From Pseudomonadota bacterium (lineage in GTDB: Bacteria > Bdellovibrionota > UBA1018 > CAIMNF01): a DNA stretch of 64,000 nt. The notes below the pieces were generated by a model, which worked only from the letters and a program-made list of their open reading frames with translations, did no database searches and was not told where the DNA came from. The translations under genes and the position numbers were made by a program. The number at the start of each line of letters is the position of its first letter. Position 1 is the first letter of the stretch. Shown in pieces: positions 1,494 to 4,940 of this stretch. The stretch is from the NCBI GenBank assembly GCA_027488515.1, contig JAIYBN010000004.1:177252-241251 (forward strand). Reading direction: 5' to 3'.

Positions 1494-1566
1494 CGTTGGG
1501 ATCACTTGCCTGATTTCAAGATTCGCATCCTGCTCGTCGCCCTACGGGCAAACCTTCGGTTTGTGC

Positions 1567-1589
1567 AAAAATGCCATCCTGGCATTTTT
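1567..1589. repeat. perfect 10-bp inverted repeat hairpin (AAAAATGCCA-tcc-TGGCATTTTT)
   Basis: Read directly: perfect 10-bp stem with a 3-nt loop and A5/T5 flanks. It lies in the gap between convergent genes at the GC-normal edge of the AT-rich islet. It could be a bidirectional terminator or a protein-binding site. Confidence 0.5.
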
Positions 1590-1838
1590 GTGAACTGACG
1601 GGACTCGCTTCGCTCGCGCGCCAGTTCTCACCATGACCCAAACAAGAGTGTTCGAATAAAAAAGCCCCAGTCTTGCGACTGAGGCTTTTTATTCGAATGG
1701 TTGCATCGTACTGACCTAAATGCTTGCAATTATTTGTGTTGCTGGGCATCCAGTCGGCATTTTTGCGTTTTTGGGCTGATTGACCCCCTAGTACACAAGC
1801 CGGAAGGGTTATGAGACAGACGAGCAACTTCGAATTGT

Positions 1839-2267
1839 TCAACTTTCTATTAGGCTATTTGATCTAATTCTTTTGGCAGCTTTCGAATTACTTTTTGTGG
1901 CAAATTCTCCCCACTCTTTCATATGCTCAATGATTGGCAATAGTGTTTCTCCAAAAATGGTCAACGAATACTCCACTTTTGGCGGGACTTCTGTGTAAAT
2001 TTTACGATCGATAATTCCATCCATTTCAAGGTCTCTTAATTGGGATGTGAGCATTTGTTTTGTGATCGAAGGGATTGATCTTTGGAGTGCGCCAAAACGG
2101 TTGATTTTATTTTTCACCAGGAAAATAATCACTGGCTTCCATTTTCCTCCAATGACTTTTAAACATAAAGTGACCGGGCAGTTCTGAGCTTCAACTGATT
2201 TAGTAATCGAAGACTTCGCCTTTCCTTTTTTAGGAAATGAAGAAGAATTAGTTATTTTGTTATCCAT
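1839..2267 (-). CDS. HxlR-family (DUF24/MarR-like winged-helix) transcriptional regulator
   Basis: 142 aa. The motif CPVTLCLKVIGGKWKPVIIFLV ... RFGALQRSIPSITKQMLTSQLRDLEMDGIIDR is typical of HxlR regulators. It is transcribed divergently from an oxidoreductase gene, the classic HxlR arrangement. Low-GC codon usage. Confidence 0.8.
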   Translation of the reverse strand: MDNKITNSSSFPKKGKAKSSITKSVEAQNCPVTLCLKVIGGKWKPVIIFLVKNKINRFGALQRSIPSITKQMLTSQLRDLEMDGIIDRKIYTEVPPKVEYSLTIFGETLLPIIEHMKEWGEFATKSNSKAAKRIRSNSLIES

Positions 2268-2290
2268 TTTAATTTACCTTATTCTTTATA

Positions 2291-2328
2291 TAGTATGAAA
2301 AAACATACTAGGTCATAAATATGTGACT
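2291..2328. promoter_or_regulatory. two palindromes in the HxlR/oxidoreductase divergent promoter region (candidate operators)
   Basis: TAGTATG-aaaaaa-CATACTA (2291-2310) is a perfect 7-bp inverted repeat. GTCAtaaatatgTGAC (2313-2328) is a second one. Both sit between the divergent starts at 2267 and 2391. Confidence 0.35.
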
Positions 2329-2390
2329 AATTGTTAAAAACACTCTATTGCTCCATCATAACTTAAGAAAGACAAATGAAGGAGTAAAAT

Positions 2391-3347
2391 ATGAGAAAGC
2401 TCATTTATCAGCTTTATGGAAAAAGTCATGATAGCAAATTAGTTGAAATTGCCCCACCTGTTATATCAACTGCTAGCCAGGTTTTAGTAAAAGTAAAAGC
2501 AGCATCCCTTAATCCTGTTGATTGGAAAATTCGTCAGGGAGAGATGAAGTTGTTCACTGGCAGTCAGTTCCCTCGTGGAATGGGGTGCGATTTTTCAGGA
2601 GTAGTTTTAGATGCGGGAAGTAATGCATATCGATTTAAAAAAGACGATCGTGTTTTCGGTTTCATTCCATTCAAAGAAGCTGGTGCGTTTGCTGATATTG
2701 TGATTTGTGATCACTCCTTAGTTGGTCATATTCCAGATCATTTATCGTTTGAAGAAGCTAGTTGTCTTCCGATGGCCGGATCAGCAGCTCTTACATCGCT
2801 AGAATTAAAGGTGCATATAAATAAAGGCGATCGGGTATTTATTGGAGGTTGCACCGGTGGTGTAGGGCATTTGGCTGTTCAGTATGCCAAATCAAGAGGA
2901 GCGGTTGTTATTGGAAGTTGTGGTTCAATTGATTTTGAAAAAGCAAAATTAATAGGTGTTGATGAAATTTACGATTATTCGAACCTATTGAGTCAGAACA
3001 TTCGTGAGTGTTCTATTGTTTTTGATACTTCAGGGAAAATGAGTCGCCAAGAAGTGCTTAAACTCTTGCCTAGTCGCTTGTTTGGAATGATTAAAGGTGG
3101 AAGTTTTGTGAATTTGAATCCAACTCCAGCGTCTATGCTTAGAAGTGTTTTTTCGAATGTCTATAAAGTTGTCATTACTAAAGTAACTCCCAGCTTGATT
3201 CAGCGATTGGCCGAGCTGGCTAAAGATAAAAAACTAAGTCCATTAATTGGGGAGAAATTTGAATTTAGTGAATCGATCAAGATCATCGAAGGTTTGGAAA
3301 CAGGAAAGAAGCGATCGAATGGGAAAGTTGTATTTACGTTTAAATAA
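2391..3347 (+). CDS. NADPH:quinone oxidoreductase / zinc-type alcohol dehydrogenase-like (MDR superfamily)
   Basis: 318 aa with strong RBS GAAGGAG. Contains ASLNPVDWKIRQG and GGCTGGVGHLAVQYAK, a Rossmann GxGxxG typical of quinone oxidoreductase-like MDR proteins. Confidence 0.8.
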   Translation: MRKLIYQLYGKSHDSKLVEIAPPVISTASQVLVKVKAASLNPVDWKIRQGEMKLFTGSQFPRGMGCDFSGVVLDAGSNAYRFKKDDRVFGFIPFKEAGAFADIVICDHSLVGHIPDHLSFEEASCLPMAGSAALTSLELKVHINKGDRVFIGGCTGGVGHLAVQYAKSRGAVVIGSCGSIDFEKAKLIGVDEIYDYSNLLSQNIRECSIVFDTSGKMSRQEVLKLLPSRLFGMIKGGSFVNLNPTPASMLRSVFSNVYKVVITKVTPSLIQRLAELAKDKKLSPLIGEKFEFSESIKIIEGLETGKKRSNGKVVFTFK

Positions 3348-3370
3348 TAGAAACTGAAAAGGAGAAGAAA

Positions 3371-4024
3371 ATGAAAGTATTAATTTTTTTAATGAGTATG
3401 AGTGTCGGTTTTAATTGTCTTGCGAAAGATGAAAATCTAATTTCACAGAAGAGAGTAGCCAGTCATATTAAGGGTAAATGGGTAAGTATTTCATGTGAAC
3501 TTCGCCCTCGTGAAAATCGCGGTACTGGGGGAAGTGTTGAGTCATTCTGGTTAAAGAGGGAATTTTTCTTTGATGGTAAAGATGGCTTTAAAGGAATAAT
3601 TAGAGGATTCGCAGATCCACTCTGCGAACAACCTGTACAGGATTTTGAGTTCGAAGGGAATTTAATCTGGCGTGGCCCTCATCCAGTAGCAAAAGAAGCG
3701 CAGTCAGTTGATTATGAACTCTCAAAAGAATTTGCAATTATTCCAAGATCACAAGCAGCCGTAGATCAAATGAACTCTCTACCGCCTGGTGCTTGTGGCG
3801 ATAAAAAGTATGCACTGAATGAGCGTCAGAGTATTTTAAAAAAACAGTGTATTCTTTTTAACATAAAAGCTGGCGAAGCAGTTAAGGATCACGATCTCGT
3901 TTACCTTTACGGATTTAATAACCTTCTTTTCATGGGCGCCAAACACGTGAATGGACAAGGGTTTTACACTGAAGATTTAAGGCCTAAGGGCGGACTTCAA
4001 ATCCCTCTTGTGAAAGCAAAATAA
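3371..4024 (+). CDS. hypothetical secreted protein (low-GC islet)
   Basis: 217 aa with RBS GGAGAAG and N-terminal signal peptide MKVLIFLMSMSVGFNCLA. No recognisable motif. AT-rich codon usage unlike the rest of the window. Confidence 0.6.
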   Translation: MKVLIFLMSMSVGFNCLAKDENLISQKRVASHIKGKWVSISCELRPRENRGTGGSVESFWLKREFFFDGKDGFKGIIRGFADPLCEQPVQDFEFEGNLIWRGPHPVAKEAQSVDYELSKEFAIIPRSQAAVDQMNSLPPGACGDKKYALNERQSILKKQCILFNIKAGEAVKDHDLVYLYGFNNLLFMGAKHVNGQGFYTEDLRPKGGLQIPLVKAK

Positions 4025-4054
4025 ATTGCGGAAATCTTTGTTGTAGATATTTGA

Positions 4055-4084
4055 GCCCACAATAAATTGTTGTGGGCTTTTTTT
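4055..4084 (+). terminator. rho-independent terminator
   Basis: gcccacaa / ttgtgggc form an 8-bp stem with loop taaattg, followed by TTTTTTT, just after the stop at 4024. Confidence 0.6.
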
Positions 4085-4091
4085 AATGTAA

Positions 4092-4247
4092 CTACTCGAT
4101 GATGTTAGCCTTTGGCCACTTCGATGCCTGAGAATCCTTAATCATCTGAATTTGCGCCTTACGCACTTCAAAAAGAATTCTAGGTAGATTTCCAGATGCG
4201 ACTGCAACGAAAGCTAGAGTTACTGCAATAGTGACTAGTGATTTCAT
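4092..4247 (-). CDS. possible small secreted peptide (51 aa, below ORF-track cutoff)
   Basis: Manual translation gives MKSLVTIAVTLAFVAVASGNLPRILFEVRKAQIQMIKDSQASKWPKANIIE. RBS AAAGGA lies 7 nt upstream of the ATG. Signal-peptide-like N-terminus. No homology support. Confidence 0.3.
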   Translation of the reverse strand: MKSLVTIAVTLAFVAVASGNLPRILFEVRKAQIQMIKDSQASKWPKANIIE

Positions 4248-4595
4248 AAATACGTCCTTTCAAATTTACGATCTAAAATCTAGATCGTAGGTTTTTAAGT
4301 TTTTCCCTCCAGACAAAGCAGTGCTTTTACCTAGAGGGATGAAAAAACCCTTTTAAATTTCGACTCTTGCAACGCTATGGATGCCCGTAAATTTTAGGCA
4401 TCCATTTTTTATGAGAAGTTTCTTTCAGGCATCTTCGGGGAGTACATTGGGCATCCACGTAGGTGTCTTTTGCGTGACTTCCAGTGACGTCGAACAATCA
4501 GAAAAACTCGATAGAAAATTATTACTTTTCCTCTGTTTTCTTCTTTGTTTTAAGTGATTTGTGATTGATTTTGATGAGTTATTTTTGGTTCGGCA

Positions 4596-4624
4596 GCCGG
4601 TTTTCAAATTTGATGAAAACCGGC
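4596..4624. repeat. perfect 9-bp stem hairpin (GCCGGTTTT-N11-AAAACCGGC) 10 nt beyond the 3' end of tRNA-fMet
   Basis: Read directly. Not followed by a T-tract on either strand. Possible tRNA 3' processing/termination structure or part of an islet junction. Confidence 0.4.
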
Positions 4625-4633
4625 TCCGAAAAT

Positions 4634-4710
4634 TGGTTGCGGGGGCCAGATTTGAACTGACGACCTTTGGGTTATGAGCCCAACGAGCTACCAGGCTGCT
4701 CCACCCCGCG
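4634..4710 (-). tRNA. tRNA-fMet (initiator, anticodon CAT)
   Basis: The reverse complement folds as a 77-nt cloverleaf ending in CCA. It has the C1:A72 acceptor mismatch and three consecutive G-C pairs in the anticodon stem (TTGGG-CTCATAA-CCCAA). It is near-identical in layout to E. coli initiator tRNA. Confidence 0.9.
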
Positions 4711-4940
4711 TCAAAAACTTCAGGTGTTTCCTGTGCTTCGAAGCCTAATCCCGAGGGGATGCGAAGTCAACGAGATTCATGGATGAGGGAACAAAACTCT
4801 CAGAATTCAGGCCACTTGGACCGGGGGTCGGGTAGGACAAATCGTACGAATTCAGCCTGATTTCAGCATAAAACTGGAAATTATTTATTTACTTTATCAA
4901 AACACTCAGGTAATATTCGAACCTCGCAAAGGAACCCTTC

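Follow-up and report, generated by a model that had tools for sequence, protein, structure and literature searches.

A low-GC islet against the initiator tRNA gene

The 64-kb stretch of a metagenome-assembled genome (MAG) from the Bdellovibrionota that we analyzed (contig JAIYBN010000004.1), hereafter the window, contains a 2.9-kb islet of DNA poor in guanine plus cytosine (GC) that lies directly against the CCA end of the gene for the initiator tRNA (tRNA-fMet). Comparison with relatives, whose loci were fetched and labeled with L-numbers (L001, L003 and so on), sets the limits of this inserted block at positions 1705-4633 (2,929 bp). Read towards the tRNA, it consists of a left non-coding arm (1705-1838; GC 0.46, without homologue in any fetched locus), a gene for an HxlR (MarR/DUF24)-family transcription regulator of 142 amino acids (aa) on the minus strand (1839-2267; Pfam PF01638, E 6e-31), a 123-bp divergent promoter and candidate operator region (2268-2390), a gene for a 318-aa NAD(P)H-dependent, quinone-reductase-like oxidoreductase of the medium-chain dehydrogenase/reductase (MDR) superfamily on the plus strand (2391-3347; Pfam ADH_N, ADH_zinc_N and ADH_zinc_N_2), and a gene for a 217-aa secreted single-domain APCDD1-like beta-barrel (ABD), also on the plus strand (3371-4024). 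A strong terminator hairpin (4053-4079; a 12-pair stem with a T-run in the terminator scan) separates the latter from a convergent gene for a 51-aa small protein with an N-terminal hydrophobic helix, in the same orientation as the tRNA (4092-4247, minus strand; identified as an open reading frame (ORF) with homologues). The right, tRNA-proximal non-coding arm (4248-4633; GC 0.37) contains a hairpin at 4595-4625 and ends with CCGAAAAT at 4626-4633.

The compositional trough is real and far beyond chance. The GC content of the block is 0.379, as compared with 0.574 +/- 0.013 (minimum 0.549) in 282 windows of the same size taken elsewhere in the 64 kb (z = -15.6), which bears out an earlier note on this DNA that had judged the region from ~1.8 to 4.6 kb to be AT-rich by eye. 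In windows of 400 nucleotides (nt), GC stays at 0.33-0.42 across ~1800-4600 and at 0.53-0.61 over the rest of the 64 kb; per kilobase, it ranges from 0.53 to 0.62 outside the trough, which is the sole one in the window (no other 1-kb window falls below 0.53). The foreign composition extends to third codon positions, with GC3 values of 0.34 for the regulator gene and 0.29 for both the reductase and the 217-aa genes versus 0.72 for the adjoining protease gene. The low-GC DNA stops at 4633, so that the islet abuts the tRNA exactly and not, as the earlier note had it, within tens of nt.

The tRNA gene itself (4634-4710, minus strand), which would be the integration target (attB), was identified as tRNA-Met(CAT) by ARAGORN and matches the Rfam tRNA model with 59.8 bits, in agreement with the position given before. 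Its C1xA72 mismatch and GGG/CCC anticodon stem, both read from the sequence, identify it as an initiator. It is intact and identical in the window and in the relatives L003, L001, L005 and L007, every tRNA column being invariant in the alignment of the right junction and tRNA (A2). These four relatives, of which L003 is ~91% identical at the nucleotide level, have the same tRNA-fMet/metalloprotease locus without the 2.9 kb and without any dip in GC, so that the check in related genomes that had been proposed for this locus turned out in favor of an insertion. In blastn comparisons with L003, window positions 1-1085 match 8426-9510, 1508-1596 match 9523-9611 and 4630-9000 match 9689-14052, the first two falling on one side of the L003 tRNA and the third on the other, and window positions 1555-1704 match 9550-9700 of L001. 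Positions 1508-1704 are thus conserved host-side DNA and 4634-4710 are the host tRNA, which narrows the limits of 1500-4720 initially assigned to the islet.

Both junctions can be placed to the nucleotide by alignment with the relatives, which is what defines the inserted block as 1705-4633. In the relatives, a terminator homologous to window positions 1659-1690 runs straight into the tRNA 3' end, (G)AATTGGTTGC-GGGGGCC... (alignment A1, left junction); an empty site in the genome of the window would read ...GGCTTTTTATTCGAATTGGTTGCGGGGGCCAG... In the window, GAATGGTTGC stands after this terminator, and unrelated DNA begins beyond it with ATCGTACTGACC... (ATCGTAC). The left junction thus reads ...GAATGGTTGC/ATCGT and the right one ...AAAATTGGTTGC/GGGGG, the low-GC ...CCGAAAAT passing there into the TGGTTGCGGGGG... 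of the tRNA; in the sense of the tRNA, CCA is followed by ATTTTCGG. The distal junction repeat, AATGGTTGC (1696-1704, minus strand; alignment A1), includes TGGTTGC (1698-1704), which equals the last 7 nt of the tRNA and forms with it a direct repeat flanking the islet (10/11 nt when the flank is included). By positional homology to the relatives, TGGTTGC at 1698-1704 would be the old tRNA end, displaced by the insertion.

An independent assembly supports the continuity of the locus. A Logan contig (run SRR16126847; L021/L022) is 100% identical to window positions 1-4683 and spans the left junction, the entire islet and the boundary between islet and tRNA, which makes a chimera very unlikely. 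The islet proteins, with identical sequences, are also encoded on an NCBI contig of 743,881 nt. The Logan contig ends inside the tRNA, at 4683, and the MAG contigs L002 and L006 also break at or just beside this tRNA; two explanations suit such breaks, repeated copies of the tRNA or a population that is heterogeneous here.

A putative electrophile-responsive regulon as cargo

The divergent pair formed by the HxlR regulator and the quinone oxidoreductase, together with candidate operator palindromes, was already recognized in the earlier note, and Pfam matches and the sequence of the intergenic region agree with this assignment. The regulator has a cysteine, Cys30, within a CPVT motif at the start of its winged-helix domain that is kept in 21 of the 21 homologues linked to genes of the APCDDC family, and a further one, Cys35, kept in 11 of these 21. 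In DUF24/HxlR regulators such as YodB, CatR, HypR and QorR, an N-terminal cysteine at the N-terminus of helix alpha1 serves as sensor of redox state or electrophiles; the characterized thiol switches act through inverted-repeat operators on genes for quinone, azo, nitro or flavin reductases (PMC3351151). The region between the two islet genes contains a perfect palindrome, TAGTATG-N6-CATACTA (7-6-7), at 2291-2310 and, in alignment with L023 and L025, an invariant block, TGACTAATTGTT, at 2324-2335. Half-sites akin to it, of the form TAGT(A/C)T, are present in L023, L025 and L026 (TAGTCT/AGACTA in L026), the palindrome being partly conserved. A promoter consensus scan gave fewer matches than shuffled sequences and was not used. 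In NCBIfam, the nearest subfamilies to the MDR protein are of the quinone/PIG3 type, all of them far below cut-off.

The gene for the 217-aa protein starts 23 nt past the stop codon of the oxidoreductase, so that both are probably co-transcribed. Its product had been described as a secreted protein of unknown function; the signal-like N-terminal helix agrees with secretion, and the protein now finds a family. It matches Pfam PF14921 (APCDDC) with 32.2 bits (cut-off 27), and a profile built from it and 14 homologues matches the mouse APCDD1 structures 8E0R, 8E0W and 8E0P with an E-value of 3.5e-28, in both ABD1 and ABD2. Its AlphaFold2 model (predicted local distance difference test score, pLDDT, 83) is found by Foldseek to resemble 8E0W with an E-value of 4e-11 and a template modeling (TM) score of 0.65-0.68, nothing else being close. 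The domains of APCDD1 are beta-barrels, one of them with a large lipid-binding pocket (PMC10193966). Because of the concordant Pfam, profile and structure matches, we consider the 217-aa protein a secreted single-domain bacterial APCDD1-like barrel.

Most likely, by analogy with the known thiol switches, the cargo is a self-contained regulon in which a thiol-switch HxlR protein would have the reductase and the barrel as its targets. The repressor would bind the palindrome and hold down both divergent promoters until Cys30 is modified by a quinone, an aldehyde, another electrophile or an oxidant. Its release would then allow the production of a cytoplasmic NAD(P)H-dependent quinone or enone reductase and of a periplasmic or secreted barrel able to bind hydrophobic ligands. 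None of the islet proteins matches an anti-phage defense system in PADLOC.

The fourth gene, read before as a possible 51-aa secreted peptide, is a real gene of a conserved family of small membrane proteins: its homologues fall into 70 clusters at E <= 1e-3, of which the closest are 66-74% identical, and have in common the N-terminal hydrophobic helix and the motifs GNLP..VRKAQ..SQASKWPKA (alignment A6, the 51-aa family). Its product is more likely membrane-anchored than secreted.

The cassette in other genomes

The arrangement HxlR(-)/MDR(+)/APCDDC(+) also exists in L023, a MAG contig of Pseudobdellovibrionaceae with a GC content of 0.385 throughout, a uniform composition that makes it donor-like, and in L025, where the same three-gene cassette (~340-2830) forms a 2.5-kb low-GC patch (0.38-0.44) among other neighbors in a contig with a GC content of 0.52. 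The edges of the L025 patch show no tRNA, integrase or Rfam match, which suggests that the cassette can reach non-tRNA sites too; Rfam searches of L023, L024, L025 and L029 gave no match either. In L023 and L025, identity to the window is 75-77% for HxlR, 75-79% over HxlR and APCDDC, and 58-59% for the reductase; reductase homologues of 59-64% identity were found in the same cassette elsewhere. The cassette is found in several unrelated contexts and, judging from these comparisons, moves as a unit.

In more distant bacteria (L026-L028), the HxlR and APCDDC genes are directly divergent and the reductase is absent. Among the 67 metagenome loci with enough upstream sequence, 13 have a divergent HxlR gene at most 400 nt upstream of the APCDDC gene. 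Such pairs, with a spacing of 23-215 nt between regulator and barrel genes and an APCDDC identity of 31-60%, are those of L026-L028, L035, L037, L040, L042, L048, L050, L058, L062, L065, L066, L091, L102 and L112. As the reductase is lacking in distant bacteria while the pairing of HxlR and APCDDC stays, the regulator and the barrel are the conserved core of the arrangement, and their association points to a module of these two genes that is kept across bacteria. L030 and L031 differ in that their barrel gene comes after a LysR regulator and a SnoaL-like gene. The pairing of HxlR with an APCDD1-like protein is the one mildly new point of this locus.

An integrase family dedicated to tRNA-fMet

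Full islands with an integrase occupy the same tRNA in relatives. In L114, which is syntenic with the window (an RNA recognition motif (RRM) protein, a DUF4953 protease and tRNA-fMet at 6365-6441), a 4.8-kb island (6365-11205) with a small methyltransferase as cargo ends with an HTH_17 gene, an integrase gene and, 78 nt past the integrase stop, a 17-nt repeat of the tRNA end. In L115 (1753-11200), tRNA-fMet is followed by a 9.4-kb defense island that encodes Thoeris and methylase proteins, then by HTH_17, the integrase and a 13-nt attachment-site (att) repeat, and L116 (1-11200) has conjugation genes of a type IV secretion system upstream of HTH_17 and integrase. Homologues of this integrase number more than 1,145, with identities of 63-99% among the top 120; the contexts examined are islands at tRNA-fMet, and the HTH_17 gene precedes the integrase in all three long ones (3/3).

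Two features tie the tRNA-proximal side of the islet to one of these islands. The 8 nt that follow CCA (ATTTTCGG) are identical in the islet and in the integrase-bearing island of L115, and the first gene after tRNA-fMet in L115 (2080-2286) is homologous to the 51-aa gene, with which it shares 45% identity (E 3e-17) as well as position and orientation. The 51-aa gene is a hallmark of the island's tRNA-proximal arm. The cargo, in turn, occurs beside an integrase of this kind. In the Logan contig L029 (1307-2499), an APCDDC gene 79% identical to that of the window is followed by a 50-aa ORF and a gene for a 365-aa tyrosine integrase (Phage_integrase, E 5e-25), and GCCCCCGCAACCAATTTT, 78 nt past the integrase stop, is an 18-nt exact match to window positions 4629-4646, that is, the end of tRNA-fMet and its flank. 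In L023, a C-terminal integrase fragment and a degenerate att copy lie downstream of the cassette.

The sole tyrosine recombinase encoded in the 64 kb (15499-16398, minus strand) is a housekeeping protein of the XerC/XerD type (NCBIfam PRK00283, 295 bits) and not an island integrase. An integrase pseudogene in the non-coding arms of the islet was considered and rejected, tblastn and six-frame profile hidden Markov models (HMMs) being empty over positions 1-5000. A phage origin was also rejected (no match among 50,697 phage records, no relative in IMG/VR, no phage-type genes in the islet), as was a plasmid origin, for which the one distant match was a 1.98-Mb Ralstonia replicon listed among plasmids.

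A recurrent insertion hotspot

The 3' end of tRNA-fMet is a recurrent insertion hotspot, and older att-flanked scraps adjoin the islet on its outer side. At a distance of 181-214 nt from the tRNA, the relatives show its 3' end repeated in direct orientation over 23-31 nt (AATTGGTTGCGGGGGCCAGATTT, ending in the T-loop); in L001 this repeat is present twice, once as an extra partial copy. Relic c (1494-1516, minus strand), which appears to be a decayed copy of the tRNA-fMet 3' end, is the positional counterpart of the 23-nt AATTGGTTGCGGGGGCCAGATTT of the relatives; its flanks align with 9509-9531 of L003 (21/23), 9481-9503 of L001 (22/23) and 4762-4784 of L005 (23/23). Next to it lies segment B (1517-1697), ~190 nt of host-side non-coding DNA shared with L003, L001 and L005 (blastn; alignment A1) that ends with a bidirectional terminator hairpin (1659-1690; hairpin I20), directly adjacent to the tRNA in the relatives. 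Since segment B is flanked by att repeats in the relatives, it is probably a remnant of an older insertion. Its counterparts (L001 9343-9718, L003 9509-9712, L005 4759-5003) contain several hairpins whose arms vary between species yet stay complementary, and segment B could be either an old-island scrap or a small structured RNA; Rfam gave no match in this region.

Farther out, segment C (1086-1507) is a 0.42-kb indel with a GC content of 0.48, outside the low-GC islet, where L003, the closest relative, has 12 bp (blastn). It encodes a 66-aa cysteine-rich ORF with a signal-peptide-like N-terminus and its own terminator (1221-1421, plus strand), without match in Pfam, NCBIfam or PADLOC. Bounded by weak relics resembling the tRNA 3' end at 1088-1112 and 1494-1516 (scores 16-18, below the 99th percentile of the null, 19), segment C may be another tiny insertion at the same hotspot.

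Within the left arm of the islet, a decayed tRNA-fMet-like copy appears at 1734-1828 (GTTGCTGGGCATCCAG...ATTT, then GGGTTATGAGACAGACGAGCAAC; repeat D3, 19/23). Its gapped local alignment to the tRNA scores 28.5, the null being 16.2 +/- 3.0 and the highest score among 1,518 window segments 28.3, with p = 0.0015 against shuffled sequences. Relics a and c owe their support to positional homology to the relatives, and the remaining relics are suggestive.

Over positions 900-5000, Rfam recovered the tRNA only and no known non-coding RNA in the arms, and profile HMMs detected no coding remnant in the right arm (4248-4633). A 17-nt stretch of the right arm (4532-4548) matches exactly the 3' ends of several distant APCDDC genes (DKEENR codons), which we judge a chance match of a purine-rich stretch; an APCDDC pseudogene in this arm was rejected, this match being unextendable in any frame and without HMM support. 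On the other side of the tRNA, the gene for the 829-aa DUF4953 met-zincin has 20 matching loci in MAGs of Bdellovibrionales/Oligoflexia, an exact-sequence look-up of this protease giving no match, and just downstream of it lies a gene for an RRM-type RNA-binding protein with a long Gly/Arg-rich tail (7609-8064, plus strand). The order RRM-protease-tRNA is also that of L114.

Origin of the islet

We interpret positions 1705-4633 as a horizontally acquired islet that entered the 3' end of tRNA-fMet as a site-specific integrative element, or as part of one, carrying the regulon as cargo, a reading to which we assign a probability of roughly 0.7. The element would belong to a family common in Bdellovibrionales. 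The layout of this family starts with tRNA-fMet, a proximal arm that sometimes includes the gene for the small membrane protein, and the cargo; the HTH_17 excisionase-like gene comes next, then the tyrosine integrase and, at the far end, the repeated tRNA 3' end. Of this layout, the islet has retained the tRNA-proximal arm and the short junction repeat; integrase and excisionase would have been lost or never carried, and the distal att site is degenerate. With both genes missing and the distal att site degenerate, the islet is most likely immobile now. The idea of an integrative element at the tRNA 3' end, put forward at the outset, gains from the TGGTTGC repeat, from the integrase islands of L114 and L115 at the same tRNA and from the proximal module shared with L115. 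The islet works in the manner of a tRNA-targeting island and almost certainly stems from one, being in strict terms an integrase-less islet or remnant. It had been called possibly old and decayed. Decay applies to the att sites and the missing integrase only, and great age finds no support, given an unameliorated composition and four intact genes.

Several observations weigh against this interpretation. Neither an integrase or excisionase nor any remnant of them was found in the islet, using tblastn with the integrase of a related island and a profile HMM built from 120 integrases on the six-frame translation, in line with what had been noted from the sequence, and there is no island integrase elsewhere in the 64 kb. 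The distal combination of HTH_17 gene, integrase and att repeat at ~78 nt is not present: beyond the HxlR stop at 1839 lie 134 non-coding nt and then the 7-nt repeat. This exact match of 7 nt is by itself too short for significance, intact family members having 13-17 nt, and the in-window relics a-d reach scores of 14-18, no higher than background or just above it (99th percentile of the null, 19; p ~0.001 for relic b), so that we rejected them as independently significant. The shared proximal arm comes from a single comparator, L115. In addition, the cassette has opposite orientations relative to the tRNA in the two settings, APCDDC being tRNA-proximal in the window and distal, beside the integrase, in L029; simple deletion from an L029-type element would therefore not yield the islet, and a model of such an element minus its integrase was rejected.

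Some of these same observations can be read differently. The islet might have been imported by recombination without any integrase: the occupied tRNA-fMet locus of a low-GC relative would have been taken up by homology-facilitated illegitimate recombination, with homologous recombination in the universally conserved 77-nt tRNA on one side and a microhomology join at TGGTTGC on the other. We regard this as unlikely. The lack of an integrase or remnant in the islet and the mere 7 nt of exact repeat at the distal junction are compatible with it, the tRNA, 100% identical across L003, L001, L005 and L007, is usable as an anchor, and the decayed tRNA-like copy at 1734-1828 could have arrived with the donor DNA. 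Nevertheless, 77 nt make a short anchor, the distal join lies exactly at the last 7 nt of the tRNA without loss of host sequence, as predicted by site-specific recombination and not by random microhomology, the proximal arm matches that of an integrase-bearing island, and this very site is, in relatives, the target of a dedicated integrase family. The present data would suit alike an integrase lost once the islet had integrated, an integration in trans and the recombinational import of a donor's occupied tRNA locus.

It is quite improbable that the islet is still mobile, as a cis-mobilizable passenger that has no recombinase of its own and is excised and integrated in trans by a family integrase whose gene lies elsewhere in the genome or on a co-resident element. 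A distal core of only 7 nt, without recognizable intact arm sites, and the absence of the family integrase from the 64 kb argue against such a passenger, despite the direct repeat of the tRNA end bounding the islet, the extreme abundance of the integrase family in the order and the presence of the cassette in several unrelated contexts. The contig breaks in the Logan assembly (within the tRNA) and in L002 and L006 (at or beside it) would be compatible with population heterogeneity, but repeated tRNA copies also explain them. As for an ancestral stretch deleted in the relatives, or a chimera of assembly or binning, these are very improbable explanations that the data already largely refute. Precise excision in the relatives would produce the same empty sites, and the source is a MAG. 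However, GC3 values of 0.29-0.34 versus 0.72 are incompatible with long residence, four out of four relatives at differing distances lack the stretch, the same cassette exists in unrelated contexts elsewhere, an independent assembly reproduces 4,683 nt including the left junction, the islet and the tRNA boundary, and the terminator of the host and the final 7 nt of the tRNA are both retained at the left junction.

Comparison with known systems

In the definition used by Islander, an island has a regenerated tRNA, a displaced tRNA fragment and an integrase inside (PMC4383910). Like such tyrosine-integrase islands of the T-stem/3'-end att class, the islet lies at the 3' end of an intact tRNA, with a 7-nt direct repeat of the tRNA end at its far end, foreign composition, absence from relatives, a reused site and full members at the same tRNA in the relatives L114 and L115. 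Unlike them, it has no integrase, an exact fragment of 7 nt versus 13-17 nt, and a length of only 2.9 kb. In Islander terms, the regenerated tRNA is there, the displaced fragment is weak and the integrase is lacking, so that the islet would fail the integrase filter.

Another comparable class is that of integrase-less cis-mobilizable elements (CIMEs) and decayed island remnants accreted in tandem at tRNA sites, as in ICESt1/CIME of Streptococcus thermophilus. The islet shares with them the bounding att-like repeats, the absence of a recombination module and the tandem att-flanked segments (islet, segment B and segment C), and differs from them in that its att sites look degenerate and its mobility in trans is hypothetical.

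With regard to the cargo, the islet resembles QorR-QorA of Corynebacterium glutamicum and YodB-AzoR1 and HypR-HypO of Bacillus subtilis in the conserved N-terminal cysteine, the adjacent NAD(P)H oxidoreductase and the inverted-repeat operator candidate (PMC3351151). The spacing differs, the HypR operator being a 7-2-7 inverted repeat (PMC3351151) and the islet palindrome 7-6-7. By contrast with those systems, the host is of a Gram-negative, predator-like lineage, the reductase has an MDR fold reaching no named equivalog, and the operon adds a secreted APCDD1-like barrel that is, in many bacteria, the partner of HxlR in place of the reductase. This barrel shares with vertebrate APCDD1 (8E0R/8E0W/8E0P; PMC10193966) the PF14921 domain, the same fold (TM 0.65-0.68) and an extracytoplasmic location; it differs in being a single barrel of ~190 residues with a signal peptide versus two barrels with a membrane anchor, in its identity of ~19-20% and in having no Wnt context.

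Biological significance

The islet is well supported but ordinary: a stripped-down tRNA-targeting island at a repeatedly used site, which is a solid result and overturns no existing idea. It offers a clean worked example in which a compositional anomaly spotted by eye corresponds to a horizontal acquisition with exact limits at a tRNA integration hotspot, the host being from an uncultured lineage of predator-like bacteria. The points worth noting are the size of the tRNA-fMet integrase family and the pairing of HxlR with APCDD1-like proteins. In Bdellovibrionales, a large family of integrases is devoted to the initiator tRNA and moves integrative and conjugative elements, Thoeris defense islands and small cargo cassettes.

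A more far-reaching proposal, tentative and rather doubtful as it stands, is that of a widespread module of HxlR thiol switch and secreted barrel, extending from Bdellovibrionales to soil metagenomes, that might serve, for example, for the periplasmic sequestering of lipophilic quinones or lipid electrophiles and, separately, that the islet might be a still-mobile integrase-less passenger of a large tRNA-fMet island family marked by the small membrane protein. For bacterial APCDD1-domain proteins, their repeated occurrence under a presumably electrophile-sensing HxlR regulator provides a testable hypothesis. If it is true, the module would for the first time place these bacterial relatives of a vertebrate Wnt inhibitor in a functional context.

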